From contig JBDREN010000082.1 in assembly GCA_043819795.1 (NCBI GenBank), forward strand, positions 1 through 36,088: a stretch of DNA of 36,088 nucleotides, given 5' to 3'. The stretch is from Elusimicrobiota bacterium (GTDB lineage: Bacteria > Elusimicrobiota > Elusimicrobia > UBA1565). Below, one piece after another: positions 5,265-36,088 of this stretch. Position 1 is the stretch's first letter; the number at the start of each line of letters is the position of its first letter. The position numbers and the translations under genes are program-made. Under the pieces are notes generated by a model. It did not search any database. It worked only from the letters and a program-made list of their open reading frames with translations, and had not been told where the DNA came from.

Positions 5265-5270
5265 CCCGAG

Positions 5271-14356: not shown

Positions 14357-15073
14357 ATGCTGATCGCCGTCGTCGGACAGGACTCGAAGTTCTGCCTCCA
14401 GCTCCAGGATCTTTTGGAGACGCAGAATCATCGCGTGTCCCTGGTCCCCGACGTCGACCACGCCTTCGCGAGGCTCACGGCCGACCCGGTCCATCTCATC
14501 GTCGTCGACGGCCTGCCGTCCAAGGACGCCACCCTCGAGCTCATCCGCACGCTGCGCGCCCACGCCTCGACCCGCCAGATCCCCGTGCTCAACGTCAACC
14601 CGAACGGCTCGGCGAAGGAGGTCGTCGAGGTCCTGGACTCGGGCGCCGACGACTACCTCGTCAAGCCGTTCAACGGGGAGATCTTCCTGGCCCGCGTGCG
14701 GACGCTGCTGCGCCGCCAGATCTGGACCGGGACGATCCAGGAGGACCCTGTCACCAAGCTGGAGTGCGGCGACCTGCATGTCCACCTCGTCGAGCGGGTC
14801 GTCCGGGTCGCGGGAGAGGAGCGCGCCCTTACCCGCCTCGAGTTCGATCTGCTCGCGTATCTGGTGCGCAACCAGGGCAAGGTATTCAAACGCGTCGACC
14901 TTCTGGAGGCCGTCTGGAAGTATCCCGAGAACATCGAGACCCGCACGCTGGACAAGCACATCGAGACTTTGCGCAAGAAGCTCGCGCCCATGGGAAAGTG
15001 CATCCGCACCGTCCATGGCGTGGGCTACCGTTTCCTCGACCCGAAGTCCCCCCTCCCGCAGCAGCGGGACTAG
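14357..15073 (+). CDS. OmpR/PhoB-family response regulator (atypical receiver plus winged helix)
   Basis: GADDYLVKPF..ARVR.LLRR and a C-terminal wHTH: LT.LEFDLL..L..NQG.VF.R..LL..VW....TRTLDKHI..LRKKL.....I.TVHGVGYRF. Confidence 0.93.
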   Translation: MLIAVVGQDSKFCLQLQDLLETQNHRVSLVPDVDHAFARLTADPVHLIVVDGLPSKDATLELIRTLRAHASTRQIPVLNVNPNGSAKEVVEVLDSGADDYLVKPFNGEIFLARVRTLLRRQIWTGTIQEDPVTKLECGDLHVHLVERVVRVAGEERALTRLEFDLLAYLVRNQGKVFKRVDLLEAVWKYPENIETRTLDKHIETLRKKLAPMGKCIRTVHGVGYRFLDPKSPLPQQRD

Positions 15074-17057: not shown

Positions 17058-20000
17058 ATGCAAGGACGCGGGCCGACACGGACGACGGGAGCTCGCCCAG
17101 CCAAGCTGGGAGGGCTGGCCGCTGTCCTCCTGGCGGCCTTGCTCCTGCGCGGCCTGTGGGCCGGCACGTTCACTTCGGCGAACTACGAGGTCAGTCCCGG
17201 CAAGGAGAACGCGGGCGGCAAGGACCAGGTCACGAGCAGTTCGTTCGAGACGAACACCTCGGCCGGCGAGGCCATCGTCGAGCGCATGTCGTCCGCGAAC
17301 TACGAGGTCGGGCCGGGGCTCATGCGTCTGATCGCCGTGCCAGGCACGGTAACCGACCTGGCGGGCTCGGGCCTGAGCACGGGGACCATACGCCTGAGCT
17401 GGACCGCTCCGGGCCAGGACGGGGCCTTCGGCCAGCTCCAGGCCGGCTCGTCCTACTACATCCAGTACGGGCAGAACGCCGTTCCCTCGAGCTGGGGCTT
17501 CGACTCGGCGCAGGTCACCCGCTCCACGAGCGGCGTGGAGAACGGCGCGGTGGTCTCTCACGACGCCGGAGGGCTGGGCGCGAACTCCACGTATTACTTC
17601 CGGATCTGGCACCGCGACCCGGGTGGGGCCATGAGCCACCTCTCCGACGAGACGACGACGCACACCTTGGCCAAGCTCGTCACCGGAGTCCAGGTCTATC
17701 GCGTCTTCAACACGAGCGCGACGGTCAACTGGGTCCCGCGGCCCGGCGCCCCGGTGGCGGAGTCGGCCCGGGGCTACCGCTTGGACGCGAGCACGGCCGC
17801 GGACTTCAGCGGGGAGTTGCTCTCGTCGTCCACGCTGAACGTGGCCTTGAGCACGCTGACCGTGGCGGGCCTGGCGCCTTCGGCGACCTTCTATTTCCGG
17901 GTGGGCACGCTCAACCACGCCTGGGTCCCGAACTTCTCGGTGGACGGCTCGACGGTCACGGGCACGGCCGTGGACATCCCCCCCCAGGACTTCCAGGTCG
18001 CGGGCGTCTTCCTGTCGAGCGCGGCCCTGGCGTGGAGCCAGGTCAACTCGGAGGGCTACGCGGCCGAGGCCTCGACGGCCGCGGATTTTACGGGCGAGGT
18101 GAGTTTCTCCTCGACCACCAACGGGCAGAAGCTCACGCTCTCGGTGGCCGGGCTCCACCCCAACACGACGTACTACCTCCGGGCCGGCGCCATATGGGCG
18201 GGCGCGACGTATTACGCCCAAGTCTCCACGCGCTCGACTCTGGCCAAGACCGTGACGATCCTGGTCGATAGTTTCCCGGCGGTCTTCGAGTCCTCGGCGA
18301 CCGCGGCCTGGGCGGCCTTGCCCCTGTCCCCTCCCGCCGCGTCCAGCGACAGCGCGCGGGGCTACCGGCTCGAGGCCTCGAGCACGAACTTCATCGGGGG
18401 AGGCGTCGTGCGGTCCTCCTCCTCGCCGAACGTTTCTCTGAGCACGTTGACGGTATTCTCCCCCGCTTTGAGCCCGAACACGACCTACTATTTCCGCGCG
18501 GGAAGCCTCAACCACGAAGGCCAGCCGAACTACGTGTCTTTGGGCTCCACCCCGACGCTGGCTTCGCTCCCCTCGGGCGCGGGCATCGCGGCCGTGCACG
18601 TGGGGAGCGTGACCGTGAGCTGGACCCCTCCCGCCTCGGCTCGGGGCTACCAGCTAGAGGCCTCCACCGCCGCGGACTTCACCGGGGAGGTCAAGCTTTC
18701 TTCCACGACGAGCGGCTCCGCCACGGGCTTGACGGTGCGGGAGCTTTCGTCGAACACGACCTATTACCTCCGCGCGGGCTCCTTCAACCATGCCCGCGTT
18801 CTGAACCGCACGGGGGTCTTCGCGTCCACGGCCACGCTGGCGGACAGGGTCACGGGACTGTCCTTCTCCGCTGTCCACGAATCCAGCGCCGCGCTCTCCT
18901 GGACCACGGTCCCGAGCCGGGGCTACGAGATCCGGGCCTCCTCCACCGGCTTCGACGGCTCCGGCACGGTCCACTCCTCGGTCACGGCCAACGGGAGCCT
19001 GGGAAGCCTGGCGGTCTTGTCCCCTCCGCTGGACGCCAACACGACGTACTTCTTCCGCGTGGGCTCCATCAACCACAACGGCGCGCGCAATTTCGAGGCC
19101 GCGGGCTCGACCTCCACGTTGGCCAAAGCCCCCGAGGTCCTGCCGCAGTCCTTCCTCGACGTCTTCGAGACCTCGGCGACCGCGAACTGGGCCGCGCGTC
19201 CCCTGTCGCCGTTATCCGAGACCGCCGAAGGCTACCGCCTGGAGGCTTCCAGCACGGGCTTCGACGGCACGGGCGTCGTGGCGAGCACAGAGACGCGCGG
19301 CGTGCTCCTGAGCACGCTCACGGTCCTGTCCCCGGCCCTGGACCGGAACACGACCTACTACTTCCGCGCGGCTAGCCTGAACCACAACGGGGTGGGCGGC
19401 GCCTACGCGGCTCTGGGCTCCATCTCGACTCTGGCGCGGGCTCCCGAGTCCGCGGCCGCGCCCTTCCTGCAGGTGCACCCGGCCTCCGCGACCGTGGCCT
19501 GGGCCGCCTTGCCTCAGAGCCCTCTGTCCGAGAGCTCGGAAGGCTATGAGCTCCAGGCCTCGACCGCCCCGGACTTCACGGGCACGGTCGTCTCCTCGGC
19601 GACAGCGGACGTGCTCGTCTCCACTCTGACGGTAGGCGCGGGCGCCGCCCAGCTCGAGCGGAACACCACGTACTACTTCCGTGTGGCGGCCCTGAACCAC
19701 AACTCCGTTTCGGGGCCTTTCCTCGCCGTCGGCAGCACGGCCACGCGTTATAGCCCTCCGGAGCCGGGCGTGCCGCCGGTGACGGCCGTATCCTCGGTCA
19801 GCGTCACGGCCCAGTGGACCTCCGGCGCGCCCGCCAATCCCGCGGGCACGGTGTACGCGCTCAGGGCCTCCACCGCCTCCGACTTCACGGGAACGGTCTT
19901 CTCGTCACAGACGTTGAGCCTGACGGACACGGTCTCCGGGCTCGCGCCCAACACCACGTACTACCTGGAGGTCCGCGTCACCAACCACAACGGAGTCCGG

Positions 20001-23000
20001 GCTTTCGGATCCTTGGGCTCGACGGCCACCTTGGCGGCGCAGCCCGCCCAGCTGGCCGTCACGTTCCTGGAGGTGTTCGAGAGCTCGGTCACCGCGGCAT
20101 GGGTTTCGGGGAACGCGGTGGGCTATCGTCTGGAGGCCTCGACCGCCTCCGACTTCACGGGGGTCATCACCTCCTCCGAGACCGCGAGCGTATCGGTCAG
20201 CACTCTGACGGTCTTTGAATCCCCGGCATTGGACCGGAACACCACCTACTACTTCCGGGTGGCGGGCTTCAATCATGCCGGGAGGATCGGAGCGTTTACC
20301 GCGCTGGGATCCACCTCCACTTTGGCACGGGCGCCCGGCACTCTGGCGACCGCGTTCCTGGACGTGTTCGAGAGCTCCGTGACGGCCGCCTGGGCCGCGA
20401 ACCCGGTCTCCCCGTTGAGCGAGACCTCCGAGGGATACGTCCTCGAGGCTTCGCCGACGGCGGACTTCTCGGGGACGGTCGTCTCATCGCGGACCGCGGA
20501 CGTGCTCGTGAGCACGCTGAGCGCGCTCTCCCCGGCCTTGGCCGCCAACACCACGCACTATTTCCGCGCGGCGTCCCTGAACCACAACGGGGTCCCCGGA
20601 CCATACGCCGCTCTGGGCTCCACCGCGACCTTGACCGCGACGCTCGCGGACGCGGCCGCCAGCGCCGTCTACCGCACGAGCATCACCGTTTCTTGGACTC
20701 CGCTGGCCTCGGCCCAGGGCTACGAGCTGCGGGCCTCGAGCACGGATTTCGGGGCGGTCTCTCCGGGAGGCGTCGTCATCAGCTCCGCCACAGACAATCC
20801 CTCTCTGGGGACCCTGACGGTCCTGAGCCCGGCCCTCGAGCCGAACACGACGTACTATCTGCGCGCGGGGGGAGTGAACCATAACGGGGTGATCAACTTC
20901 GGGTCCGCGGGCGCGCGCTCCACGCTCGCGAACCTGACCCAGAACCACCAGTTCAATCAGGTCAACCAGAGCAGCGTGACCGTGACCTGGATCCCCCTGC
21001 CCACGGCCGCCGTGGCCGGCTCGTCGAGCACATCCGAGGGGTACGTCGTCCAGGCCTCCACCTCGCCTAATTTCGGCGGGACCATCGTCTCCTCCAGCAC
21101 GCCGAACGTCGGGCTGAGCACCCTGAGCGTGGTCGGGCTCTTCGTCAACACCACGTACTACTTCCGGGTGGGCTCGCTCAACTGGGAGAGCGTGGGGAAC
21201 TACGCGTTCGTGGGCTCGACCGTGCGGTTCGTGACGCCTCCGGACCGGGCCTGGAAGGTGCAGGCCTACTCCGGGGAGCTGCTCGCTTTGACGCTGGACG
21301 TGGACATCGATCCCGTCTACGACCTGGACAGGGCTTTCATCGTCGTGCCGTCCGGCCAGATGTCGGCCGGCGTGGGCAACATCGACAACAACATGGACCC
21401 CACCGAGGTCCTGGTCCGGGCGAGCTTCGTGAGCGCGAGCAAGGTCCGGCTCACGCGGGGCGTCGTCACCAACGGGAGCCTCTATTCCTTCTTCGTGGTC
21501 GAGAACCCCTCGGGCGGGGAGATATACGTCAAGTCCGGCTCCAACGGCTTCGTGGACAACACGGACGCGGACCTCGACATCAACGTGGGCGCCGGGATAA
21601 GCGACTACACGAAGACCGCGGTATTCGTGTCGGTGGAGAGCAACAACGGCACGAGGGACCACTACAACCAGGCCCATGTCCGGGCCCGCATGACCTCCAA
21701 CACCAACCTGGAGTTGCGGCGCACGGCCGGGGGCTCGATCGCGACCGTGAACTGGTTCGTGGTGGAGTTCATCGGGCCGGACTGGACCGTGCAGAGCGGG
21801 CAGACCCTCTTCGGGGCGAACCCCACCAACCAGGCCATCACCGCGGTCGCGGACACGAACAAGACCTGGGTCTACATGAACTGGAGCGCGGCCGCGCCCT
21901 TCAGCGACGACGTCTCCGCCAAGGTGGAGCTCACTGCCGCCGCCAACATCGCGTTCTCCCGCGACGGGGTCACCACCAACGACATCACCGCGAACTGGTT
22001 CGTGATGGAGAATCCGCTCATCGACGTCCAGCGCGGCGGGGCGACCAGCGCCGCCGCCGTTTACACGGTGAACCAGACCATCAGCCAGGTGGACACGACT
22101 TTGGCCTTCCCGGTCACCTTCAACGACAGCGCGGAGGGAGGCGACAAGTTCCCCCGCGGCTACTGGAGGGCCACGATCCCGAACCCGACCACGCTGACGT
22201 GGGACAGGTCCTACGCCGGCAGGGCCGCGGTCTTCACCTGGCAGGTCGTGCATCTCTCCTCCAACGTGGCCCCGGGCCCGGTCACGAACCTCTCGGCCCT
22301 GGTGGACGAGAAACTGGGCGAGGTGAGGCTCTCCTGGACGGCTCCGGGCGACGACCGGTACGCCGGGATCCTGGGCCAGGGCTGCGAGTTCCGTATCCAG
22401 CACACCACCGACGCGGTCGGCGCGGCCACCGACGTGTTCTGGTCCACGGCCTCGGCCCAGATCAAGATATCCACCTTCAACGTCAGTCCGGGGACCGTGC
22501 AGGAATGGGAGGTCGGATCCCTCTGGTCTAACTCGACCCACTTCTTCCGGATCTTCACGACCGACGAGGCGGGCAACGTCTCCCTGCTCTCGAACGGGGC
22601 GACCGTGGCCACTCTGGCGAACCCGACAGACGGCCACCAGTTCGCCGCGGTGAACGTGACGACCGTGACCGTGAACTGGACGCCTTTGCCCACCGCGGCC
22701 CAGGAGGGCTCGTCCAACACGGCCGAAGGCTACGTGGTCGAGGCTTCCTCCACGGATTTCGGGGCCTTCCTGCCTGGAGGCGTGCTCTACAGCTCGCAGA
22801 CGCGCAACGTCTCCTTGAGCACCCTCACGGCCCCCGGCGCGGTGCCCGAATTGGACCCCAACACGACCTACTACTGGCACGTGGCGTCCCTCAACTGGGC
22901 GGACGCGCGGACCTACGTCGCCATCGGTTCGACTTCCACGCTGGCCGTCGAGCCCACGGCTTTGGCCGAGACCTTCCTGGACGTTTCCCAAAGCTCGGTG

Positions 23001-26000
23001 ACCGTGGCTTGGGCCGCCCGGCCCGAGTCGCCTCCCGCGGCGTCGAGCGAGACGGCCTCGGGGTATCTCCTCCAGGCCTCGACCGCCGCGGACTTCACCG
23101 GGGTCCTGATCTCGTCGGAGACCGCCGACCTGTCGGTCAGCACTTTGACGGTCCTCTCTCCGGCCCTGGACCCCAATACGACGTATTACTACCGTGCCGG
23201 TACCCTGAACCACAACCACGCGCCCAACTTCATCCATTTCGGCGGCACGGCCACGCTCACCCTGCCCCCGACGGCATTGGCGCAGGAGGCCACCTTCCTG
23301 GAGGTCTTCGAGACCTCGGTCACCGTGGCCTGGGCCGCCTTCCCGCCCGCGCCGTCGAGCGCCAGCGCCTTGGGCTACCGGGTGGAGGCCTCCAGCACCG
23401 ACTTCGACGGGACGGGAGTGATCGTCAGCTCGGAGACGGACAGCGTGTCCTTGAGCACTTTGACGCTGTCCTCCCCCGCCCTGGACCGGAACACGACCTA
23501 TTACTTCCGCGTGACGGCCTTCAACCACAACCATTCCGTGAGTCGCTACACCGCGCTCGGCTCCACATCCACGCTGGCCCAGGCGCCCACGGCCCTGGCC
23601 GCGACGTTCCTGGGCGTGTTCCGCACCTCGGCCACGGTCGCCTGGACCGCGCTTCCCGAGTCTCCGCCCGCTGTCCTGAGCGAGACGTCCGAAGGCTACC
23701 TATTGCAGGCTTCCACGGCCCCGGACTTCACGGGGATTATCGTGTCCTCTCGGACGCTGGAGGTCGCCGCCAGCACGCTGACGGTATCCTCTCCCGGACT
23801 GGATTCGAACACCACGTACTACTTCCGGGCGGGCAGTCTGAACCACAACCTGGCGCCGCGGTTCACGTTCCTCGGGTCCACCGCCACCATCGCCAACGCG
23901 CCTACCGCCTTGGCCCAGGCCGATACATTCCAGGCCGTCTACGAGAGCTCGATCACGGTGGCCTGGGCCGCGCACCCGGTCTCGCCCTTGAGCCTGAGCG
24001 CGGAAGGCTACCGGGTGGAGGCATCGAGCACGGACTTCGACGGCACGGGAGTGGTGATCAGTTCGCAGACGGATAACGTCCTTGCGAGCACGCTGACGGC
24101 GCTTTCCCCCTCCCTCGACGCGAACACGACGTATTATTTCCGGGTGGCGGCCTTCAACCACAACGGCGTTCTCAGCGAGTACACGACCTTGTTCGCCACT
24201 TCGACCCTGGCCGCGGCGCCCACGGCTCTGGCCCAGGCGGACGCCTTCCTCGGAGTCTTCGAAACCTCGGCCACCGTGGCCTGGGCGGCCGTGCCGGCCT
24301 CTCCGCAGGCCGCGAGCGCCGAGGGCTACCGCCTGGAGGCCTCGAGCACCAACTTCGACGGCTCCGGGGTGGTCGTCTCTTCGAAGACGGCGGATGTCCT
24401 CCGGAGCACGCTGACGGTCCTCTCCCCGGCCTTGGACCGGAACACCACGTACTACTTCCGGGTGGCGGCCATCAACCACAACGGCGTGCCCGGCTCGTAC
24501 GCCGGCCTGTACTCCACCTCCACGAAGGCCCGTCCGCCGACCGGCCCCGCCTTCTTCGCGGTCTTCGAGACCTCGGTCACCGTGCGATGGGATCCGCTGC
24601 CGCAGGCGCCGCTGAGCGAGAGCGCCGAAGGGTATCTGCTCCAGGCGTCTTTGAGCCCCGACTTCAGCGGCGCGGTCATATCTTCCCGTACGGCGGCCGT
24701 GACAGCCAGCACCCTGACCGTGCTCTCCCCGGCCTTGGCGCCCAACACGACGTATTACTTCCGGGCGGCCAGCCTCAACCACAACGGCGTCAGGAGTTTC
24801 ACCGTCGTGCTCGCCACCTCCACCTTGGCGCTTCCCCCGGTCGCGAATTCGCCGGCGGCCACGTTCCTCGGAGTGTTCGGGACGTCGGTCACGGCCACGT
24901 GGCAGGCGCGTCCGGGAGGTCCGCTCTCCCAGACCTGCGAGGGCTACCGCCTGGAGGCCTCGAGCACGGGTTTCAGCGGCGGGACCGCGCACAGCGCCCG
25001 CTCGAGCACCTATCTCGGCAACACCCTGACGGTCCTTTCCCCGGCCCTGGACCGCAACACCACCTACTATTTCCGCGCGGCCAGCCTCAACCACAACGCC
25101 ACGCCCGGAAACTACACCTCCCTTTACGCCACGTCCACTCTCGTGGGGACCGTGCAGGCTTTGCCCGCGGCCGACTCGTTCCTTGTGGTGGGCACGACCT
25201 ATGTCACCGTCGCCTGGGTCGCGAAACCCCTCTCGCCGAGGTCCGAGAGCTCCGAAGGTTACCGCCTCCAGGCCTCCACGGCCGCGAACTTCACCGGAAC
25301 GGTGGTCTCCTCGCGGACTTTGAACGTGACGCTGAGCACCTTGACGGTATCGGCGCCCCCTCTCCAGGAGGACACGACGTACTACTTCCGGGTGGCCGCC
25401 CTCAACGCCAACGGGATCCCGGGGCCGTACACCGCGCTGGGCTCGACCGTGACGCTCATCAGCGGGCCCCAGCCCCTTCCGACGACGTTCCTCGGGGTCT
25501 TTGAGTCCTCGGCGACCGTCGCATGGGCCGCCACGGGAGCCAACGGCTACCGCCTGGACGCGTCCACGGCTCCGGACTTCAGCGGGGTGGTCGTCTCGTC
25601 GCAGACGAGCGCCGCGTCGGTGAGCACGCTCACGGTCGTGTCGCCGGCCTTGGACGCGAACACGACCCACTACTTCCGCGTGGCCGCGTTCAACAGCCAG
25701 CAGGTGCTCGGCCCGTACACCCAGCTGGGCTCCACGTCCACCTTGGCCCGGGCGCCCGAGGCCCTGGCCGCATCGTTCGTCGAGGTGTTCGAGTCGTCGG
25801 CGACCGCAGCGTGGGCCGCGCGGCCGGCGGGCCCGCTCGCGGAGAGCGCCGAGGGCTACCGCCTGGAGGCTTCGACCGCGGCCGATTTCAGCGGAACGGT
25901 GATCTCGTCGAGCACTTTGGACTTCCTCGCATCCACTTTGACGGCCGTGTCCCCGGCCTTGAGCGCCGACACGACGTACTATTTCCGCGCCGCGTCGCTC

Positions 26001-29000: not shown

Positions 29001-32000
29001 CCCAAGACCTGGGTGGGCGCGGCCGGGGACAACGATTGGAACACGGCCTCGAACTGGAACCCCCTCGGGGTGCCCACCGCGGGAGAGTCGGTCACCATCA
29101 ACCTCAGCACGACCGTCTTCTCCCAGCTCATCGCCATCTCCTTCTCGAGCCTGACCTTGGGAAGCCCGGACGGCTCGGCCGCCGCGTCCCTGACTCTGGG
29201 GGCCCAGATCGAGGCCGGCCAGAATATCGCCATCTTCAGGAACGCGGGGCTCACCATCGACACGGACCTGCCGGTCAGCGTGGCCAACGACATCACCATG
29301 TACGCGGGCTCGAGCATGACCCATACCGCGAACCCGGCTCTCAGCACCTCCTCCGTCCTGAACTTGAGCGTGGGCGGGACCTTCGACATCCAGGACGGGG
29401 CCACTCTCACGGTCAAGGCCAAGGGCATGCCGGGCGGCGCGTCCAACGGCGGCCCGGGCGTGGGCCTGGGCGGCGGGTCCGGCATCGCGACCAATGAGAA
29501 GGCCGGCGGCGGCGGCGGCCACGCGGGCGGCGGCGGCGCGGGCGACAACAGCGGGGCCTCGGGCGGCGGGACCTATGGAAGCCGGACGGACCCGGCCGAC
29601 GTGGGCTCGGGCGGCGGTGGCGGCGGGGCCAGCTCGGGCGGCCAGGGCGGGGCGGGCGGCGGCTTGATACTCATCTCCGGCGACACGATCCTCCTGGACG
29701 GTTTGATGGACGCCTCGGGCGGGGACGGAGGCAGCGCGGCCCAGGGCGGAGGCGGCGGCGGCTCCGGAGGATCCATCAACCTTTCCGCCGCCGCGATCTC
29801 GGGCTCGGGCCAGCTGCGCGCGGACGGCGGAGCGGGCCTCGGAGGCGGCGGAAGCGAGTACGGCGGCGGAGGAGGCGGAGGCCGCATCCGTGTCAACGCT
29901 GCCGGAACCTGCGCGCTGCCCAATTCGGCAGCGTCCGTGGAAGGCGGCGCGTCGGGAGGGACCGGTATCGCCGGCTTCGCGGGCACGGCGTTCGCGGACA
30001 GCCTTGCCGCCCCTACGAGCCTGACGGGCGTGGTCCAGTCCTCGACGAGCGTCGAGTGGCAATGGAACGCGGGCGCCGGGGCCGGCGACTACCAGGTGCG
30101 CGCCTCCACCGGCGGAGCCTTCTCGGGCGCCTTGTCCACGACGACTTTCGCTTTCATTCACTCCGGACTGGAGCCCAACACCGAGTACTCGGCCTTCATG
30201 CGGGCCAGGGGCTGCGCGTCTCAGGACGACTCGGACGTCGCGGTGAGCACGACTCTGGCCAAGCCGGTCGCGGGCGCCCAGATCTCCGAGGTGTTCGCGG
30301 GCAGCGCCACGCTCAACTGGCCGGCCTTCGCCGTGAGCCCGTCTAGCGAGAGCGCGGCGGGCTACCGGCTGGAGGCCTCCACCGCTTCCGACTTCAGCGG
30401 GGACATCGCATCGTCGCAGACCTTGATCGTGGCCCTGAGCACCTTGACCGTCTCCGGGCTCGACGCGAACACCACGTACTTCTTCCGCATCGCCTCGCTC
30501 AACCTCGCTTCGGCCTCCAACTTCACGGACGCGGGCTCGACCTCGACTCTAGTGTCCGCCTCGCCGGCGACCTTGCCCGAGACGTTCCTGGAGGTGTTCT
30601 CCTCATCGGCGACGGCCGCGTGGGCCGCCCTGCCTCAGGCGCCGCGCGCGCAAAGCGCCGAAGGCTACGTGCTCCAGGCCTCGACCGCCGCGGACTTCAC
30701 CGGGACGATCCATTCGTCGGGCACCGCCTCGGTCCTTGTCAGCACGTTGACGGTCCTGTCCCCCGCCCTGAGCGACAACACGGCGTACTACTTCCGTGTG
30801 GCCGGCCTCAACGCCAACGGGCTTCCCGGCCCCTACGCCGCGCTGGGCTCGACCGCCACCCTGATCGCGGGCGCTCCCACGGCCCTGGCCGCCGCGGACA
30901 CGTTCCTCGGGGTCTTCGAGTCTTCGGCCACGATCGCCTGGGCCGCCGGCGGTTTGAACGGCTACCGGCTGGAGTCCTCGACCGCCCCCGACTTCAGCGG
31001 GGTGGTGGTCTCCTCCGAGACGACCGACGCTTTGGTGAGCACTCTGACGGTCCTATCGCCGGCTCTGGATGCGAACACGACCCACTACTTCCGGGCGGCG
31101 TTCCTGAACCTCGGCGGCGTGCCCGGGCCGTACGCCCAGCTGGGCTCCACGTCGACGTTGGCTCCGGCGCCCGAGGCTCTGGCCGCGTCGTTCACGGAGG
31201 TGTTCGAGTCTTCCGCGACCGCCGCCTGGGCGGCCCGGCCGGCGACCCCGCTCTCCGAGAGCGCCGAAGGCTACCGCCTGGAGGCCTCGACGGCCGCGGA
31301 CTTCAGCGGCACGGTGATCTCTTCCGAGACTTTGGGCGTGCTCGTTTCCACGCTGACGGCTCTCGCTCCGGCTTTGGACGCGGATACGACCTATTACTTC
31401 CGGGCCGCTTCGCTCAACCACAACGGAGTCTGGGGCGCGTTCACCTCGTTGGGCTCCACGTCGAGCTTGACGGCGCGGCCCGTGGGTCCCGCGCCCTCGG
31501 AGACCTTCCTGAGCAGCATGACGGTGCAGTGGACGGCGGTCACGTCGCAGGGCTACGAGCTCCAGGCGTCCACGTCGGAGGACTTCTCGGGCACGGTATA
31601 CGTTTCGAGCACGGCGAGCGGCGGGGCCACGACGCTGGATACGCCGGTCACGCTGAACGCGAACACCACGTACTATCTGCGGGTGGGCGGCGTCAACCAC
31701 AACGGGGCCCGCAACTTCGAGTCCGCGGGCTCGACCTCCACTTTGGCTCAGGCGCCCGCGTCTCCGGCGTTCGAGGTGGTGTACTTCACGTCGGTGACGG
31801 TGAACTGGGCGCAGGCCGTGTCCGAGGGCTACGATCTTCAGGCCTCCACCGTCCCCGACTTCACGGGAGTGATCACCTCGTCGGCGACCGCGGACGTGGC
31901 GGTGACCACGTTGACGGTGACGGAGATTCAGTCCGGGGCCACGTGGTACTTCCGGGTGGGCAGCCTGAACCATAACGGGGTGCCGCACTTCACGTCCGCG

Positions 32001-35000
32001 GGCTCGACGTTCACGCTGGTTGCGCCCTTGTACTGGACGGGCTCCGGAGGCGACGGCAACTGGTACACGACGTCCAACTGGTCCCCGCCGCAGGTGCCGA
32101 ACAAGGCGCATGCGGTGACGATCAATGCGGCCGCAAACGTGCATGTCGACGTCAGTTCGCCGGCGATATCCTTCTCGAGCATGACGCTGGGCCGGCCGGA
32201 CGGGGCCGCGGCCGTGAGCCTGACTTTGTCGACGGGCATCGCGTTCGGGTTGGCGATCGTGGTCAACGACAACGCGGGGCTCACCTCGGACACGACAACG
32301 GAGATGAGCGTGAGCGGGAACGTGACGCTCTTGTCGGGCTCGAGCATGACGCATACGGCCAACCTGGCGCTCAGCACGAGCTCGTCGCTGAGCTGGGATA
32401 TCGGGGGAACCTTCGACATCCAGGCCGGCGCCACGGTCACGGTCGTCGGCCGGGGCATGCCCGGCGGCGTCGCGGGCGCCTCGGGAGTCGGGACAGGAGG
32501 CGGTTCCGGGACCGTGACCGCCGACAGCGGCGGAGGGGGCGGCGGCTACGGCGGAGCGGGAGGGACCGGCGATGGGGCGTCTCCGGGAGCCGGCGGGAGC
32601 GCCTACGGGAGCCAGACCGCGCCCGCCGACGTGGGCTCTGGCGGCGGCGGCGGCCCGGGCGCGTCCGGCGGAGCCGGCGGAGGATCCATACGGATCGCGG
32701 CGCAGACGGTCCACCTCAACGGGCTCTTGGACGCCCGGGGATCGGCCGGGCAGAGCGCGGCCGCGGGCGGCGGCGGAGGCGGCTCGGGCGGAACGATCAG
32801 GCTCTCGGCCGTCACGGTGACGGGCGCGGGCGCCCTGCGCGCGGGCGGAGGCTCGGGCCAGGGCGGGGGCGGCAGCGAGTACGGCGGCGGCGGAGGCGGC
32901 GGCCGGATCGCGGTGAGCGCCGCGGGCACGTGCTCGCTGGACGCTCCGGAGTCCACGGCGGGCGGCGGGTCCTCCGGCGGCTCGGGAGCCACCGGGACGG
33001 ACGGGACCACGTACTCGCCCAACCTGACGGCCGCGACCGGATTCACGGGGGTCGTGCAGTCCTCGACCGCCGTCGCCTGGCGGTGGACCGCGGGGACGGG
33101 CATGTTCCGCAACCGGGTGTTCTCGTCCACTGGCGGCGCGATCTCGGGAGAGCTCTCTTCGACCACCACGGAGTTCCTGAGGACCGGGCTCCTCCCGAAC
33201 ACGACCTACGGAGCTTACGTGCGGGACTACGGGTGCGGCCATTCCCTGGACAGCTTGGTGGCGGTCAGCACCACCTTGGCCAGGCCCTTGGAGAACGTCC
33301 AGGTCGTCGGGGTCCAGGACACCACCGTCACTTTGAACTGGAGCGCCCTGCCGGCGGCGCCGCAAGCGGACTCGTCGGCCGGCTACCGAGTGGAGGCTTC
33401 GACCGCCCCGGACTTCAGCGGGACGGTCCTATCGTCGCAGACCGTCAACGTGGCGCTCAGCACGTTGAGCGTGTCCGGGCTCGGCCGGAACACGACCTAT
33501 TACTTCCGGGCAGCTTCCCTGAACCTGGGCTCGGTCGCGAACTTCGTGGCCGGAGGCTCCACCGCGACTTTGTCCCGCTCGCCCGCGGCCATCGCCCCCT
33601 CCTTCACGGGGGTGTTCGAGACCTCGGCCACCTTGCGCTGGGCCGCGCTCCCGGCCGCTCCGCGGACCGAGACCGCCGAAGGCTATGTGCTCGAGGCCTC
33701 CACCGCGTCGGACTTCACGGGGACGGTCGTCTCCTCGCGCACGCTGAGCGTATCGCTCAGCACGCTGAGCGCGCTCTCCCCGGCCTTGGACCGCAATACC
33801 ACGTACTACTTCCGTGTGGCTTCGCTCAACTGGAGCAAAGCCCCCAGCGCCTACACGTCACTGGGCTCCACGTCCACGCTCGCGCGCTCTCCCCAGGCTC
33901 TGGCCAACGCATTCCTGACGGTCCACCCGGCGTCGGCCACCGCGGCGTGGGCCGCGCTGCCCGGGGCTCCCCTCGCGGAGAGCTCCGAAGGCTACGAGCT
34001 GCAGGCCTCCACCGCGCCGGACTTCACGGGGACGGTCATCTCGTCGGCCACCGCCGACGTCTTGGTGTCCACGTTGACGGCGCGGGACCCGGCTCTGGAC
34101 CGCAACACGACCTATTACTTCCGCGTGGCGGCGCTCAACCACAACGCGGTCCCCGGCCCGTTCCTGGCTCTGGGCAGCACGGCGACGCTCCTGAGCACGC
34201 CGGAGGCGGGCGTGCCCGCGATCAGCGCGGTCTCCTCGAAGACCGTGACGGGCCAGTGGACCTCCGGGACCCCGGCCAACCCTTCGGGGACGCTCTACGC
34301 CCTGCGCGCCTCCACGGCTTCCGACTTCACGGGCGCGGTCCTCTCGTCCGGCACGCTGAACGTTTCGGGCACGGTCGTGGCGCTCACCCCGGACACGACC
34401 TACTATCTCGAGGTCCGGGCCGCGAACCACAACGGCGTCGCCGCTTTCGTGGGCCTCGGATCGAGCTCCACCTGGACGGCCGACGTCACGGCTCCGGCGG
34501 CCGCGGTGGTGTACGTGAGCAGTCTCACGGCCGGGTGGGGCGTGGTGAGCGCCCAGGGCTACGAGCTCCAGGCCTCGACGGCGTCCAACTTCACGGGCAC
34601 GATCCACTTCTCGAGCACGACCAACGGCGGGGCCTCGGCCTTGACGCTGAACGGGTTGACGGCCAATACGACGTACTATCTCCGCGCGGGCGGCGTCAAC
34701 CACAACGGGGCGAGGAACTTCGTGGTCGCCCCGGCCACGCCCACTCTGGCTCAGCGCGTCACCTCGCCGGCCGTGGCCCAGGTCTACTACACGAGCGTCA
34801 CCGTGAGCTGGGTCGGCCCGTCGCCCGATCCCGCCGGCTACCGCGTGGACGCCAGCACCGCCCCGGACTTCACGGGCACGATCAAGTCCTCCGCCACCCC
34901 GAACGGCGCGGCCGTCGGCCTGACGGTGACGGCTCTCACCTCCGATACGACTTATTACCTGCGCGTGGGGTCCTTGAACCACGCTCGGGTGCCGAACTAC

Positions 35001-36088
35001 GAGTTCGTGGCCGCCACGATCACCCTGACCTCGCCGAAAACCTGGGTGGGGACCTCCGGCGACGGCAACTGGTACACCCAGGAGAACTGGAGCCCGGCCG
35101 GCGTGCCGCAAAGGGCCAACGCCGTCACCATCAACATCGTCGCGAACGTGTCCGTGCATCAGAGTTCGCCCGCGATCTCGTTCTCGAGCATAACGCTGGG
35201 GCAGGCGGACGGGAGCGCCGCGGTCAGCCTGACTTTGTCCACGTCGATCGCGGCGGGCGTGGACATCCTCGTCCATGACGGCGCGGGCCTCACGCTCGAC
35301 AGCACGGCGGTCTACGAGCTTTCGGGCGACCTCACGATGCGGCCCGGCTCCACCATGACGCACGCGGCCAGCGCTTCCGCGGCCACGCGCGCGGCCATCC
35401 GGTGGGACATCGGCGGGGAGTTCGACCTGCAGGCCGGGGCCACCATCACGGTCAGCGGCAGGGGCCACCCCGGAGGCGCGGCGAACGGCGGAAGCGGCTT
35501 CGGTTCGGGCGGCGGGACCGGCATCGCGCCCAACGACAAGGGCGGCGGTGGCGGCGGCTACGGCGGGGCCGGCGGACAGGGCGAGAACGACGGAGGCGCG
35601 GGGGGCCCGTCCTTCGGCTCCCAGACCGACCCGAACGAGGTGGGCTCGGGCGGAGGAGGCGGCGGCGCCAGCACGGGGAGCGAGGGCGGAGCCGGCGGCG
35701 GCTTGGCGCGCATCGTCGCGGGCACGATCATCATGGACGGGCTCATCGAGGCCGTCGGCGCCGACGGCGCGAGCGCAGCCTTGGGCGGCGGCGGCGGTGG
35801 ATCGGGAGGCGCCGTCAGTCTGTCCGCCGCGGACATCTCCGGCTCCGGCGCGTTCCGCGCGGAAGGCGGGTCCGGGCAGGGCGGCGCGGGCAACGAGTAC
35901 GGAGGCGGAGGCGGAGGAGGCCGCATCGCGGTAAGCGCCTCGGGTACCTGCTCTCTGGCCGCCTCCACCGCCACGGTCTCCGGCGGCTTCTCGGCCGCGG
36001 GCGGGGCCGGCGATCCCTCCAAGCCGGGCCAGTCCGGCGCGGACGGGACGGTCTATACCCCCAACCTGGTGGCGCCGGCCGGCTTCTT
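17058..36088 (+). CDS. Giant secreted multidomain surface protein (>6,340 aa; FN3-like repeats plus glycine-rich modules), 3' end beyond the window
   Basis: ATG 17058 follows GAGGAG and an in-frame upstream TAG; signal-peptide-like MQGR..KLGGLAAVLLAALLLRGLWA. The same frame gives coherent repeats at every position I translated, up to the last line (..TVYTPNLVAPAGF). The track lists no plus-strand ORF in this frame after 17058, consistent with no internal stop. Confidence 0.93.
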   Translation, partial: MQGRGPTRTTGARPAKLGGLAAVLLAALLLRGLWAGTFTSANYEVSPGKENAGGKDQVTSSSFETNTSAGEAIVERMSSANYEVGPGLMRLIAVPGTVTDLAGSGLSTGTIRLSWTAPGQDGAFGQLQAGSSYYIQYGQNAVPSSWGFDSAQVTRSTSGVENGAVVSHDAGGLGANSTYYFRIWHRDPGGAMSHLSDETTTHTLAKLVTGVQVYRVFNTSATVNWVPRPGAPVAESARGYRLDASTAADFSGELLSSSTLNVALSTLTVAGLAPSATFYFRVGTLNHAWVPNFSVDGSTVTGTAVDIPPQDFQVAGVFLSSAALAWSQVNSEGYAAEASTAADFTGEVSFSSTTNGQKLTLSVAGLHPNTTYYLRAGAIWAGATYYAQVSTRSTLAKTVTILVDSFPAVFESSATAAWAALPLSPPAASSDSARGYRLEASSTNFIGGGVVRSSSSPNVSLSTLTVFSPALSPNTTYYFRAGSLNHEGQPNYVSLGSTPTLASLPSGAGIAAVHVGSVTVSWTPPASARGYQLEASTAADFTGEVKLSSTTSGSATGLTVRELSSNTTYYLRAGSFNHARVLNRTGVFASTATLADRVTGLSFSAVHESSAALSWTTVPSRGYEIRASSTGFDGSGTVHSSVTANGSLGSLAVLSPPLDANTTYFFRVGSINHNGARNFEAAGSTSTLAKAPEVLPQSFLDVFETSATANWAARPLSPLSETAEGYRLEASSTGFDGTGVVASTETRGVLLSTLTVLSPALDRNTTYYFRAASLNHNGVGGAYAALGSISTLARAPESAAAPFLQVHPASATVAWAALPQSPLSESSEGYELQASTAPDFTGTVVSSATADVLVSTLTVGAGAAQLERNTTYYFRVAALNHNSVSGPFLAVGSTATRYSPPEPGVPPVTAVSSVSVTAQWTSGAPANPAGTVYALRASTASDFTGTVFSSQTLSLTDTVSGLAPNTTYYLEVRVTNHNGVRAFGSLGSTATLAAQPAQLAVTFLEVFESSVTAAWVSGNAVGYRLEASTASDFTGVITSSETASVSVSTLTVFESPALDRNTTYYFRVAGFNHAGRIGAFTALGSTSTLARAPGTLATAFLDVFESSVTAAWAANPVSPLSETSEGYVLEASPTADFSGTVVSSRTADVLVSTLSALSPALAANTTHYFRAASLNHNGVPGPYAALGSTATLTATLADAAASAVYRTSITVSWTPLASAQGYELRASSTDFGAVSPGGVVISSATDNPSLGTLTVLSPALEPNTTYYLRAGGVNHNGVINFGSAGARSTLANLTQNHQFNQVNQSSVTVTWIPLPTAAVAGSSSTSEGYVVQASTSPNFGGTIVSSSTPNVGLSTLSVVGLFVNTTYYFRVGSLNWESVGNYAFVGSTVRFVTPPDRAWKVQAYSGELLALTLDVDIDPVYDLDRAFIVVPSGQMSAGVGNIDNNMDPTEVLVRASFVSASKVRLTRGVVTNGSLYSFFVVENPSGGEIYVKSGSNGFVDNTDADLDINVGAGISDYTKTAVFVSVESNNGTRDHYNQAHVRARMTSNTNLELRRTAGGSIATVNWFVVEFIGPDWTVQSGQTLFGANPTNQAITAVADTNKTWVYMNWSAAAPFSDDVSAKVELTAAANIAFSRDGVTTNDITANWFVMENPLIDVQRGGATSAAAVYTVNQTISQVDTTLAFPVTFNDSAEGGDKFPRGYWRATIPNPTTLTWDRSYAGRAAVFTWQVVHLSSNVAPGPVTNLSALVDEKLGEVRLSWTAPGDDRYAGILGQGCEFRIQHTTDAVGAATDVFWSTASAQIKISTFNVSPGTVQEWEVGSLWSNSTHFFRIFTTDEAGNVSLLSNGATVATLANPTDGHQFAAVNVTTVTVNWTPLPTAAQEGSSNTAEGYVVEASSTDFGAFLPGGVLYSSQTRNVSLSTLTAPGAVPELDPNTTYYWHVASLNWADARTYVAIGSTSTLAVEPTALAETFLDVSQSSVTVAWAARPESPPAASSETASGYLLQASTAADFTGVLISSETADLSVSTLTVLSPALDPNTTYYYRAGTLNHNHAPNFIHFGGTATLTLPPTALAQEATFLEVFETSVTVAWAAFPPAPSSASALGYRVEASSTDFDGTGVIVSSETDSVSLSTLTLSSPALDRNTTYYFRVTAFNHNHSVSRYTALGSTSTLAQAPTALAATFLGVFRTSATVAWTALPESPPAVLSETSEGYLLQASTAPDFTGIIVSSRTLEVAASTLTVSSPGLDSNTTYYFRAGSLNHNLAPRFTFLGSTATIANAPTALAQADTFQAVYESSITVAWAAHPVSPLSLSAEGYRVEASSTDFDGTGVVISSQTDNVLASTLTALSPSLDANTTYYFRVAAFNHNGVLSEYTTLFATSTLAAAPTALAQADAFLGVFETSATVAWAAVPASPQAASAEGYRLEASSTNFDGSGVVVSSKTADVLRSTLTVLSPALDRNTTYYFRVAAINHNGVPGSYAGLYSTSTKARPPTGPAFFAVFETSVTVRWDPLPQAPLSESAEGYLLQASLSPDFSGAVISSRTAAVTASTLTVLSPALAPNTTYYFRAASLNHNGVRSFTVVLATSTLALPPVANSPAATFLGVFGTSVTATWQARPGGPLSQTCEGYRLEASSTGFSGGTAHSARSSTYLGNTLTVLSPALDRNTTYYFRAASLNHNATPGNYTSLYATSTLVGTVQALPAADSFLVVGTTYVTVAWVAKPLSPRSESSEGYRLQASTAANFTGTVVSSRTLNVTLSTLTVSAPPLQEDTTYYFRVAALNANGIPGPYTALGSTVTLISGPQPLPTTFLGVFESSATVAWAATGANGYRLDASTAPDFSGVVVSSQTSAASVSTLTVVSPALDANTTHYFRVAAFNSQQVLGPYTQLGSTSTLARAPEALAASFVEVFESSATAAWAARPAGPLAESAEGYRLEASTAADFSGTVISSSTLDFLASTLTAVSPALSADTTYYFRAASLNHNGVWGAFASLGSTSTLTERPVGPAPLETFLSSMTAQWTAVTSQGYELQASASPDFSGTVYVSSTASGGATSLATPVSLAANTTYYLRVGGINHNGVRNFESAGSTSSLAQAPTAPSFQAVYYTSVTVQWTQAVCEGYELQASTGPDFTGVIESSATADAAVTALTATDIQSGTTWYFRVGSLNHNRVPHFVYAGSTFTLVAPLYWTGAGGDGNWYTESNWSPPQVPMKSNVVTIDVAANVRVDASSPAISFSSMTLGRSDGASEVSLTLSTGIAFGLSILVNGNAGLTSDTTAELRVSGNVTLMSGSSMTHTANVAASTGAWLSWNTSGVFDVKAGATVTVLGRGMPGGGAGAPGAGTGGGTGTAAADSGGGGGGYGGAGGTGDGASPGFGGSAYGSQTAPVDVGSGGGGSGGAGGSGGGYLRIAAQTIQLNGLLDARGSAGQSAAAGGGGGGSGGTIRISAVTVTGAGALRADGGSGQGGAGSEYGGGGGGGRIAVSASGSCSLDASESTADGGTSGGSGAAGSAGTTYSPNLTAAAGFTGVVQSSSAVSWRWTAGTGVLRYRVFAATGGAISGDLSSTTTEFLKTGLLPNTTYGAYVRDYGCAHLLDSLVAVSTTLAKPVQNIRVGAVFVTSATLNWNALAAAPQADSSAGYRLEASTAPDFSGTVLSSQTSNVALSTLTVANLGVNTTYYFRAGGLNLGGAPNYVVGPATATLLSTPQPGTPVFPVVSSRTITAQWTAGPEGNPAGTLYTLRASTASDFTGAVLSSQTVGFSGAASTLTPNSTYYFEVRATNRNGVVAYASLGSTATLTADVGSSQATQVFLSSVTVSWTPVTAQGYALQASTASDFTGTIHSSVTANGGLGSLATPATLTSNTTYYLRVGGVNHNGARNFVIIPATATLAPLVSAPDFQAVFFTSVTVNWTVPSPEPSGYRVEASTAADFSGGINSSATVVGSSDFLTVNTLNSGTTYYFRVASLNHASLPHYLAAGSTVTFAAPKTWVGAAGDNDWNTASNWNPLGVPTAGESVTINLSTTVFSQLIAISFSSLTLGSPDGSAAASLTLGAQIEAGQNIAIFRNAGLTIDTDLPVSVANDITMYAGSSMTHTANPALSTSSVLNLSVGGTFDIQDGATLTVKAKGMPGGASNGGPGVGLGGGSGIATNEKAGGGGGHAGGGGAGDNSGASGGGTYGSRTDPADVGSGGGGGGASSGGQGGAGGGLILISGDTILLDGLMDASGGDGGSAAQGGGGGGSGGSINLSAAAISGSGQLRADGGAGLGGGGSEYGGGGGGGRIRVNAAGTCALPNSAASVEGGASGGTGIAGFAGTAFADSLAAPTSLTGVVQSSTSVEWQWNAGAGAGDYQVRASTGGAFSGALSTTTFAFIHSGLEPNTEYSAFMRARGCASQDDSDVAVSTTLAKPVAGAQISEVFAGSATLNWPAFAVSPSSESAAGYRLEASTASDFSGDIASSQTLIVALSTLTVSGLDANTTYFFRIASLNLASASNFTDAGSTSTLVSASPATLPETFLEVFSSSATAAWAALPQAPRAQSAEGYVLQASTAADFTGTIHSSGTASVLVSTLTVLSPALSDNTAYYFRVAGLNANGLPGPYAALGSTATLIAGAPTALAAADTFLGVFESSATIAWAAGGLNGYRLESSTAPDFSGVVVSSETTDALVSTLTVLSPALDANTTHYFRAAFLNLGGVPGPYAQLGSTSTLAPAPEALAASFTEVFESSATAAWAARPATPLSESAEGYRLEASTAADFSGTVISSETLGVLVSTLTALAPALDADTTYYFRAASLNHNGVWGAFTSLGSTSSLTARPVGPAPSETFLSSMTVQWTAVTSQGYELQASTSEDFSGTVYVSSTASGGATTLDTPVTLNANTTYYLRVGGVNHNGARNFESAGSTSTLAQAPASPAFEVVYFTSVTVNWAQAVSEGYDLQASTVPDFTGVITSSATADVAVTTLTVTEIQSGATWYFRVGSLNHNGVPHFTSAGSTFTLVAPLYWTGSGGDGNWYTTSNWSPPQVPNKAHAVTINAAANVHVDVSSPAISFSSMTLGRPDGAAAVSLTLSTGIAFGLAIVVNDNAGLTSDTTTEMSVSGNVTLLSGSSMTHTANLALSTSSSLSWDIGGTFDIQAGATVTVVGRGMPGGVAGASGVGTGGGSGTVTADSGGGGGGYGGAGGTGDGASPGAGGSAYGSQTAPADVGSGGGGGPGASGGAGGGSIRIAAQTVHLNGLLDARGSAGQSAAAGGGGGGSGGTIRLSAVTVTGAGALRAGGGSGQGGGGSEYGGGGGGGRIAVSAAGTCSLDAPESTAGGGSSGGSGATGTDGTTYSPNLTAATGFTGVVQSSTAVAWRWTAGTGMFRNRVFSSTGGAISGELSSTTTEFLRTGLLPNTTYGAYVRDYGCGHSLDSLVAVSTTLARPLENVQVVGVQDTTVTLNWSALPAAPQADSSAGYRVEASTAPDFSGTVLSSQTVNVALSTLSVSGLGRNTTYYFRAASLNLGSVANFVAGGSTATLSRSPAAIAPSFTGVFETSATLRWAALPAAPRTETAEGYVLEASTASDFTGTVVSSRTLSVSLSTLSALSPALDRNTTYYFRVASLNWSKAPSAYTSLGSTSTLARSPQALANAFLTVHPASATAAWAALPGAPLAESSEGYELQASTAPDFTGTVISSATADVLVSTLTARDPALDRNTTYYFRVAALNHNAVPGPFLALGSTATLLSTPEAGVPAISAVSSKTVTGQWTSGTPANPSGTLYALRASTASDFTGAVLSSGTLNVSGTVVALTPDTTYYLEVRAANHNGVAAFVGLGSSSTWTADVTAPAAAVVYVSSLTAGWGVVSAQGYELQASTASNFTGTIHFSSTTNGGASALTLNGLTANTTYYLRAGGVNHNGARNFVVAPATPTLAQRVTSPAVAQVYYTSVTVSWVGPSPDPAGYRVDASTAPDFTGTIKSSATPNGAAVGLTVTALTSDTTYYLRVGSLNHARVPNYEFVAATITLTSPKTWVGTSGDGNWYTQENWSPAGVPQRANAVTINIVANVSVHQSSPAISFSSITLGQADGSAAVSLTLSTSIAAGVDILVHDGAGLTLDSTAVYELSGDLTMRPGSTMTHAASASAATRAAIRWDIGGEFDLQAGATITVSGRGHPGGAANGGSGFGSGGGTGIAPNDKGGGGGGYGGAGGQGENDGGAGGPSFGSQTDPNEVGSGGGGGGASTGSEGGAGGGLARIVAGTIIMDGLIEAVGADGASAALGGGGGGSGGAVSLSAADISGSGAFRAEGGSGQGGAGNEYGGGGGGGRIAVSASGTCSLAASTATVSGGFSAAGGAGDPSKPGQSGADGTVYTPNLVAPAGF
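21243..22259 (+). repeat. Four tandem ~80-90 aa beta-rich domains within the giant ORF
   Basis: Units begin KVQAYSG / YVKSG / TVQSG / DVQRG, contain a D..(R/K/L)(A/T)(F/A/W) motif and end FFVVEN / NWFVVEF / NWFVMEN / TWQVVHL. Confidence 0.75.
26607..27608 (+). repeat. Glycine-rich module 1 (type A)
   Basis: APLYWTGAGGDGNWYTESNWSPPQVP ... SMTHTAN ... GRGMPGG ... GGGGGGYGG ... GSGGGG ... GGGGGGSGGTIRI ... EYGGGGGGGRIAV. Confidence 0.85.
28998..30005 (+). repeat. Glycine-rich module 2 (type B)
   Basis: APKTWVGAAGDNDWNTASNWNPLGVP ... SMTHTAN ... AKGMPGG ... GGGGGHAGG ... GSGGGG ... EYGGGGGGGRIRV. Confidence 0.85.
32022..33026 (+). repeat. Glycine-rich module 3 (type A, close copy of module 1)
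   Basis: APLYWTGSGGDGNWYTTSNWSPPQVP; offset 5415 nt from module 1 (TTGTACTGG at 26613 and 32028). Confidence 0.85.
35031..36068 (+). repeat. Glycine-rich module 4 (type B)
   Basis: SPKTWVGTSGDGNWYTQENWSPAGVP ... GRGHPGGAANGG ... EYGGGGGGGRIAV; offset 6033 nt from module 2. Confidence 0.85.

Follow-up and report, generated by a model that had tools for sequence, protein, structure and literature searches.

What is a predicted secreted protein of more than 6,000 residues for, and how is it held on the cell? The question is raised by an entire contig (C82) of an Elusimicrobiota bacterium, 36,088 nucleotides long and referred to below as the window, from a genome of 4.99 Mb in 241 contigs. Source records label homologues of one of this genome's proteins as Elusimicrobia, consistent with that phylum. 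The initial annotation had read one frame of this window as a very long cell-surface filament displaying several binding modules. Such a filament is supported here by a signal peptide, a rod of FN3-like repeats and adhesin-like predicted beta-helices, but not as a free-standing giant adhesin, given a pilin-like C-terminus that makes the protein likely the tip of a pilus.

A giant reading frame cut by the contig end

Frame +3 is free of stops from position 17040 to the last base of the window. Counted from the ATG at 17058 it holds 6,343 codons without an in-frame stop on exact translation, as expected from the earlier description of a frame longer than 6,340 aa and still open at the edge. The frame had also been said to be missing from the list of open reading frames, which is explained by the ORF lister reporting such frames only when open ends are allowed. 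In this stretch, the two alternative forward frames are interrupted by 202 and 17 stops. The GC3 of the giant frame is 0.91, matching that of the housekeeping genes upstream, and Ala, Ser, Gly and Thr together make up 51% of the protein. Because the window is the whole of contig C82, the frame has been truncated by the assembly. No exact internal repeat of at least 50 nt was found in the gene, so collapsed or inflated repeats are unlikely; since intact orthologues with the same layout exist as well, so is misassembly. The giant frame is a genuine gene with a length of no less than 6,343 codons. Its size by itself is ordinary in this genome, where 10 stop-free frames reach at least 6,000 codons. 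Elusimicrobiota have been reported to be rich in huge proteins (PMC11573180).

Table 1. Features on the forward strand of the window, in order of position
Feature	Position	Strand	Residues	Basis and remarks
OmpR/PhoB-type response regulator	14357..15073	+		Pfam, synteny
Secreted 527-aa fibre-like protein, MAT-like N-terminal domain	15428..17011	+		Ends 46 nt before the giant gene
Giant ORF	17058..36086	+		6,343 codons without a stop before the contig end; putative adhesin at a pilus tip; C-terminus likely on contig C59:1-1866
Sec-type signal peptide	17058..17162	+		Basic first residues, then a hydrophobic stretch and small residues where cleavage is likely; choice of start codon uncertain; sequence and hydropathy
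N-terminal "SGG domain" of ~60 aa, three similar Ser/Gly-led strands	17163..17348	+		Alignment; candidate docking site for MAT-like fibre
FN3-like repeats 1-13	17349..21242	+		Self-built profile, Pfam
Beta block, four repeats of 79-92 aa	21243..22259	+	1396-1734	Weak likeness to unnamed phage proteins
FN3-like repeats 14-27	22296..26615	+		Self-built profile
Gly-rich module 1	26616..27605	+	3187-3516	Homology to module 2 predicts a beta-helix with inserted glycine runs
FN3-like repeats 28-32	27606..29006	+		Self-built profile
Gly-rich module 2	29007..30002	+	3984-4315	AlphaFold2 model, parallel beta-helix
FN3-like repeats 33-39	30003..32030	+		Self-built profile
Gly-rich module 3	32031..33023	+	4992-5322	82% identical to module 1
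FN3-like repeats 40-46	33024..35039	+		Self-built profile
Gly-rich module 4	35040..36062	+	5995-6335	Near contig end

Domain organization of the giant protein

Strongly hydrophobic windows start only at aa 17-20, in agreement with the signal peptide proposed earlier, and, marginally and internally, at aa 5050-5051 (Table 1). A profile built from the protein's own repeats delimits exactly 46 FN3-like units, where about 46 had been estimated, and Pfam fn3 was matched in all four quarters of the protein (E 5e-52 to 3e-29). The beta block splits into four alignable repeats, as its first description as a fourfold array implied. No Pfam or PHROG family, no phage record and no relative of 186-594 aa was found for the block, which is present in 4 of 41 genomes. 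Its Atlas neighbours are unnamed, mostly phage clusters (0.91-0.94, with low recognition), and the block may resemble phage fibre-tip or H-type lectin domains.

All four Gly-rich modules named in the initial annotation are present, and they are 54-82% identical to one another. Structure prediction and structure search by segment, suggested there as a check, gave for module 2 a confident AlphaFold2 model (pLDDT 92.7, pTM 0.92) of a parallel beta-helix, whose nearest structures are the adhesins EtpA (Z 13.4, rmsd 3.1, 202 residues aligned) and HMW1 (Z 12.7). About 130 residues are unaligned to EtpA, including nine glycine runs that received no DSSP assignment, and Gly accounts for 40% of the last 197 residues of the module. 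The glycine runs are likely polyglycine-II helices in this model. The predicted EtpA/HMW1-like fold tells nothing of the ligand. Relatives of the modules comprise 192 proteins of 582-2,000 aa, some of them named from Elusimicrobiota, Verrucomicrobiae, Lentisphaerae and Omnitrophota. A likeness to the polyglycine-II bundles of phage gp38 or of ALK was considered but not confirmed: there was no Foldseek match in the PDB at E 0.001, a viral entry named gp38 appeared only at E 0.81, and none was found by profile.

The missing C-terminus

The last 281 nt of the window are 90% identical to the first 281 nt of contig C59, inside a Gly module, and this is the only end-to-end match for that contig end among the 241 contigs. 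After the overlap, the frame of C59:1-1866 encodes four FN3 units and a 144-aa domain followed by a stop. C59:1-1866 probably carries the end of the giant gene; against this link, the overlap is 90% identical and not exact. If the overlap is allelic (a strain variant), the full protein would have about 6,871 aa; alternatively, a further repeat unit may have been lost between the contigs. Among public contigs, none bridges the two ends; a small share was present in run X1 alone, as fragments 151-438 nt long that do not span the junction, and one fragment has the C82 version of the overlap.

Orthologues have the same ending. In a relative (G001), a complete syntenic orthologue, a frame of 4,641 codons in the same neighbourhood, has a last domain that shares 60% identity with that of C59, and a 7,161-aa protein (P0157) agrees with the giant protein in its order of parts, contains four Gly modules and closes with this terminal domain. 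Contigs C19 and C141 were rejected as continuations, with lower identity, different architectures and type IX-like ends. The C59 domain is the sole tip-type domain found in the genome. Inspection of the C-terminus for a secretion or anchoring domain, which the initial annotation had recommended, thus became possible through C59 and the orthologues and yielded this 144-aa pilin-like domain, which belongs to no NCBIfam or Pfam family; no type A or type B type IX sorting domain was found on the giant protein.

A predicted incomplete pilin domain at the C-terminus

The 144-aa domain of C59 matches two small secreted proteins of the same genome (C185 and C158). The small proteins carry about 15 extra residues ahead of the domain, which form a short strand directly after the signal peptide. 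By this sequence match, the C-terminal domain of the giant protein is homologous to small secreted pilin-like proteins. A profile built from four such sequences has matches in 696 library representatives and, within the phylum, in 38 of 151 genomes, with families f4 (45 genomes) and f12 (44 genomes) giving none. Among the best 150 library matches, 50 are at least 400 aa long, and in all 50 the domain lies within 12 aa of the C-terminus; 47 of these 50 large forms are without the first 11 profile positions. Of 84 short matches among the same 150, 70 include these positions, and the remaining 14 appear by eye to be mostly fragments of large forms or cut genes; 16 matches of intermediate size were left out of both classes.

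The fold was examined on the small protein C185. AlphaFold2 modelled it as a beta-sandwich (pLDDT 81.6) whose low-confidence N-terminus contains a strand at aa 8-14, and Foldseek returned FimA as the best match (E 6e-4). In a wide structure search with the same model, 10 of the first 14 entries are donor-strand fibres or pilins: TLP-1b (Z 6.9, rmsd 3.3, 127 residues aligned), CS17 (6.7), EcpA (6.5), CooA (6.4), CfaB (6.3 and 6.0), archaeal bundling pili (5.9), TasA (5.9), Csu (5.6) and Hyper2 (5.6), the last of which we take to belong to this group. All Z scores are below 8, a range that the tool describes as a common arrangement, and Cox11 and a hexosaminidase domain tie for first place. The tip-domain profile matched no solved structure, and the nearest named Atlas clusters (WxL, 0.80; SCPU, 0.79) are weak leads. 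Pilus tip adhesins have a pilin domain that is without the N-terminal strand. The C-terminal domain of the giant protein, reached via C59 or the orthologues, is predicted to be of the same kind, a pilin fold without its donor strand. TLP-1 is described as a donor-strand fibre (PMC11494351).

Predicted pilins, a chaperone-like protein, a base and a barrel-like gene in one operon type

The surroundings of the domain were read at 16 loci from 13 other genomes, chosen for several profile matches and favouring complete operons. The usual order is a large protein ending in the domain, small subunits bearing the strand, a two-domain protein of about 315 aa, and then the base protein with a barrel-like gene behind it. 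In the base, a signal peptide and a strand are joined to a type IX-like tail, in most cases with FN3 units as well, and there is no pilin domain. A pilin followed by a base and a barrel-like gene is found at 11 of these 16 loci, and also at C158 in the giant protein's own genome. With HMMs, a TIGR04183 tail and a barrel of the PorP/SprF or PorV family were scored above the cut-off in G000 and G041; the matches in G140 are weak, and tail and barrel at the other loci were recognised by eye. Likewise by eye, 12 bases end in a type IX-like tail rather than an LPxTG anchor. Tips of only 350-600 aa with the giant protein's terminal domain occur in operons with pilins, and one genome (G007) has seven near-identical pilins in tandem.

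The strand of the base resembles that of the local pilin. Similarity between base and pilin strands averages 25.1 within operons and 9.2 +/- 8.9 across operons, a mean of 25.1 being reached in 0 of 20,000 shuffles, with strand windows set by eye and related genomes that are not independent. The cognate pilin ranks first for 6 of 12 bases and among the top four for 11, and last for the base of G112.

Among 15 members of the two-domain, chaperone-like family, the PapD-type Pfam families ASH and MSP were each matched weakly by one member (E 0.04) and FixG_C was also matched weakly; PapD_N, DUF916 and DUF3324 were not among the families listed, and the family profile matched no solved structure. 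The usher PF00577 was found neither in the own genome (90% complete) nor in five other genomes (96-99%), with a positive E. coli control. WxL (PF13731) was absent from five genomes at E 1, with a positive control, and from 31 tip domains. For the type IX route, a frame of 1,889 codons on contig C134 gave three partial matches to SprA/Sov (E 2e-15 to 1e-13, below the cut-off), and the own genome has 32 PorV-family matches. A search for GldM and GldN, components of the type IX motor and ring, gave no match in the genome, and the control genomes likewise gave none.

In G007 and G013 a housekeeping run shared with the window (gmk, a TMEM260-like gene, tyrS and the response regulator) is followed by a pilin array, and this synteny ties the giant locus to the pilin system. 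The own genome has these components at separate places. About 12 kb beyond the stop on C59, reached via an exact 141-nt overlap, there is a pilin gene together with a chaperone-like gene; C158 holds a second pilin, a base of 3,900 aa and its barrel, and C223 a second chaperone-like gene. The giant gene itself is not in an operon with pilins, which counts against a pilus.

A proposed pilus and its alternatives

We consider it probable that the giant protein is the tip of an usher-less donor-strand pilus-like fibre, which would resemble the Elr pilus but be anchored in an outer-membrane barrel. Into the predicted incomplete pilin domain at its C-terminus, a small pilin would insert its N-terminal strand, further pilins would chain on by strand exchange with the help of the predicted chaperone, and the base protein would end the chain by donating its strand. 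The base itself would likely be held on the PorV/PorP-like outer-membrane barrel via its type IX-like tail. Adhesion would be the task of the beta-helix modules and the beta block, which are distributed over a rod of about 50 FN3 units. An FN3 unit is 3.5-4 nm long, and the rod, if extended, would measure about 175-200 nm. Export is proposed to run through the SprA-like translocon. That a tip of about 6,900 aa without a type IX tail of its own must still cross the outer membrane is a point against the pilus reading.

An unlikely alternative is that the C-terminal domain is complete and serves in anchoring or sorting, as was long thought of WxL, in which case the giant protein would be an ordinary adhesin or coat and its small paralogues coat proteins. 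The modest fold scores, the constant C-terminal position of the domain (usual for sorting domains), the weak WxL and SCPU leads and the many giant secreted proteins of this genome all fit such a role. It leaves unexplained, however, why a strand-only base tracks the strand of the local pilin, why the strand is missing from 47 of 50 large forms and why a chaperone-like gene is the neighbour; furthermore, the WxL platform model has itself been revised to a pilus (10.64898/2026.10.17.759780).

Quite improbable in our estimate is a pilus without a shaft, in which the strand of the base would plug directly into the giant protein's C-terminal domain and the FN3 array would be the stalk. At its length the giant protein could do without a shaft, its gene lies away from the pilin genes of the own genome, and the base strand does resemble pilin strands; the short tips that share operons with pilins speak against this arrangement, as do the seven tandem pilins of G007, a number that would suit an abundant shaft subunit. 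That the frame was inflated by repeat misassembly, or is not expressed, is very improbable, for although the assembly is from short reads and the gene is cut at a near-repeat, the gene has a housekeeping-like codon bias and no 50-nt exact internal repeat, the 7,161-aa orthologue keeps the order of parts, and five short contigs of run X1 are identical to window sequence.

Comparison with known systems

Donor-strand pili of Gram-negative bacteria are known with an usher. The chaperone-usher pili (type 1 Fim, CFA/I and CS17, ECP, Csu) share with the Elusimicrobiota system a predicted pilin fold, a strandless pilin domain on the tip and a strand-only base, but in 6 of 6 Elusimicrobiota genomes tested there is no PF00577 usher, and there is no PapD_N match. 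The giant tip is about 20 times the size of FimH or PapG.

Likenesses are also found among systems that work without an usher. The Elr pilus of Enterococcus faecalis, whose shaft was shown by cryo-EM, follows a four-part logic (10.64898/2026.10.17.759780) that recurs here: a large tip carrying a pilin domain at its C-terminus, small strand-bearing pilins, a two-domain chaperone (in Elusimicrobiota a predicted one) and a strand-only base. Unlike Elr, the Elusimicrobiota system gave no match to Pfam WxL, DUF916 or DUF3324. Where the Elr base has a terminal LPxTG for sortase, the Elusimicrobiota base has a type IX-like tail and a PorV/PorP-like barrel as its neighbour; the Elr chaperone is membrane-anchored, whereas the C185 chaperone-like protein has no C-terminal hydrophobic membrane helix by eye. 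Elr is reported from Bacillota only (10.64898/2026.10.17.759780). Pam pili of CPR bacteria similarly combine usher-less donor-strand assembly, chaperones, a strandless tip and a strand-donating base containing FN3, a likeness in described architecture; they differ in having two-domain pilins, a tip with a single small domain, and chaperones and base held by membrane helices in a cell without outer membrane (PMC13278184). Since the Elusimicrobiota system fails the tests for WxL, DUF916, LPxTG and usher, we file it under neither Elr/WxL nor Pam.

For the anchor, SprB-SprF and PG1035-PorP of Bacteroidota are described as a surface type IX tail held by a dedicated PorP-like barrel (PMC9143113). 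Anchoring of the base on a barrel is proposed because of this precedent of a type B tail on PorP; the difference is that the Elusimicrobiota tail sits on a separate base and not on the giant adhesin. Omnitrophota giant proteins (10.1101/2023.11.21.568195) are likewise very large predicted surface proteins of uncultured bacteria with a proposed role in adhesion, but contain numerous membrane segments and, in many cases, SecA-like and peptidase domains, none of which was seen in the Elusimicrobiota giant by hydropathy or Pfam. The main texts on Elr and Pam, in the parts accessible, make no mention of Elusimicrobiota (10.64898/2026.10.17.759780, PMC13278184), and a literature search that covered neither subscription papers nor preprint supplements found no description of donor-strand pili in this phylum.

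Next to donor-strand pili with an usher, a sortase anchor (Elr) or a membrane-tethered base (Pam), anchoring by a type IX-like tail on a PorV/PorP-like barrel would add one more way to cross the outer membrane. The proposed pilus would also assign a function to an unnamed family that 38 of 151 genomes of this phylum, most of it uncultured, possess. One class of the phylum's huge, unannotated proteins would be accounted for as interchangeable pilus tips with lengths of about 340 to more than 7,000 aa.

The N-terminal domain and the upstream fibre-like gene

The 527-aa protein encoded upstream of the giant gene matches the NCBIfam family Bdello_MAT_N (NF053851) at E 3e-7 and 30.2 bits, below the family cut-off of 60, and has no sequence match in the PDB. 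It resembles the MAT fibres of Bdellovibrio in joining a weakly matching N-terminal domain to a fibre-like body, and differs from them in its score under the cut-off. For the Bdellovibrio fibres, the surface partner of the MAT N-terminal domain is said to await identification (Caulton et al., PMC10769870).

MAT-like genes often come in threes, and the relatives G001 and G010 have three tandem copies at the position of the upstream gene. The three-strand SGG domain is common among tips. In the own genome, a gene with a MAT-like N-terminal domain is found no more than a few kb from each of the five SGG domains (four of them in the profile seed, that of C69 outside it). Around relatives' MAT-like genes, an SGG domain directly follows a signal peptide in 12 of 20 regions with a score of at least 8 bits (at least 15 bits in 5), and several regions have none. 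At 10 bits or more, 11 matches fall in 0.26 Mb of such regions, one of them not after a signal peptide, as against 9 in the 4.99 Mb of the own genome. This gene neighbourhood suggests the SGG domain as an adaptor that might grip a trimeric MAT-like fibre by its three strands, a reading that we find plausible but put slightly short of an even chance.

In a more speculative step of the proposed mechanism, the three-strand N-terminal domain of the giant protein would dock the trimeric MAT-like fibre encoded upstream. The full assembly would be a donor-strand pilus of Elusimicrobiota in which type IX-like machinery replaces usher and sortase, with a giant tip of about 6,900 aa that bears four beta-helix/polyglycine modules and grips three MAT-like chains; we offer this whole tentatively and hold it to be possible, though on balance doubtful. 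If true, it would supply the surface partner still sought for the MAT N-terminal domain and describe a three-tier appendage of barrel-anchored pilus, giant rod and trimeric fibre. The link between SGG domain and MAT-like genes bears on the open question of what holds MAT-type fibres on the cell. On C37 and C141, the SGG partner consists only of an SGG domain and a type IX-like tail, and is encoded beside a barrel gene.

Pilin-like arrays and MAT-like fibres

The pilin-like family, small secreted proteins homologous to the putative C-terminal tip domain assigned to the giant FN3-repeat protein, occurs both as gene arrays and as tandem domains. Seven near-identical pilin genes lie in tandem at a locus syntenic with the window in a relative's genome, and the 2,154-aa library protein P0156 ends in two tandem pilin-like domains, with the strand positions matched in the last one. 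A phylum-wide profile search gave no hit to these proteins in 45 f4 genomes or in 44 f12 genomes (f4 and f12 being families of the phylum); judging from genome size (1.2-1.7 Mb for the f4 genomes among those listed) and genome number, both may be gut-associated lineages. A look-up of the tip domain (L009:1435-1866, on the contig likely to carry the giant's C-terminus) in the Atlas returned look-alike 142-aa clusters from Nanobdellota and Woesearchaeota records (0.95, with a recognition value under the reliable range), a hint that small archaea may have related subunits.

MAT-like genes, whose fibre-like products weakly match the Bdellovibrio MAT N-terminal domain, are frequently found as sets of exactly three tandem paralogues, which suggests that the fibres are heterotrimeric. 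Two proteins of about 200 aa combine the three-strand candidate docking domain with a type IX-like tail, and each has one gene of the PorV family and one MAT-like gene beside it; from this composition and setting, they are candidate minimal fibre adaptors.

Features of the window and of related loci
Feature	Location	Strand	Remarks
TMEM260-like O-mannosyltransferase with TPRs	window 8877-11309	+	Pfam E 3e-28; upstream of giant gene
PMT_2 protein	L009:8878-11532 (C59)	-	PMT_2 family match
TPR membrane protein	L009:11405-13462 (C59)	-	TMTC-like by eye
Seven tandem pilin genes	L047:10244-15614 (G007 C13)
MAT-like genes in tandem sets of three	G000 C96, G001 C43, G010 C165, G015 C363, G006 C47, G013 C5, G013 C12, G003 C53, G007 C17
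Three-strand/type IX-like-tail proteins	L062:300-944 (G000 C37), L063:2553-3170 (G000 C141)
Mevalonate-like gene run	G000 C223:7572-15345	+	resembles archaeal-type pathway by eye; adjoins second chaperone-like gene

Glycosylation and start of the giant gene

Ser and Thr make up 24% of the giant protein, which may therefore be glycosylated, a candidate modification. Its start codon is uncertain. A Shine-Dalgarno-like word within window 17045-17060 ends one base before the ATG, closer than is typical.

Other loci of the same genome

Frame changes were observed close to the 3' ends of other giant secreted genes, on contigs C19 (minus strand, 2-32348; a 9,998-codon frame overlaps a 987-codon frame), C118 and C3, reflecting either assembly error or real frameshift. 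The mevalonate-like run presumably encodes type 2 IDI, HMG-CoA reductase, mevalonate kinase, UbiD, two AcnX-like subunits and isopentenyl phosphate kinase.
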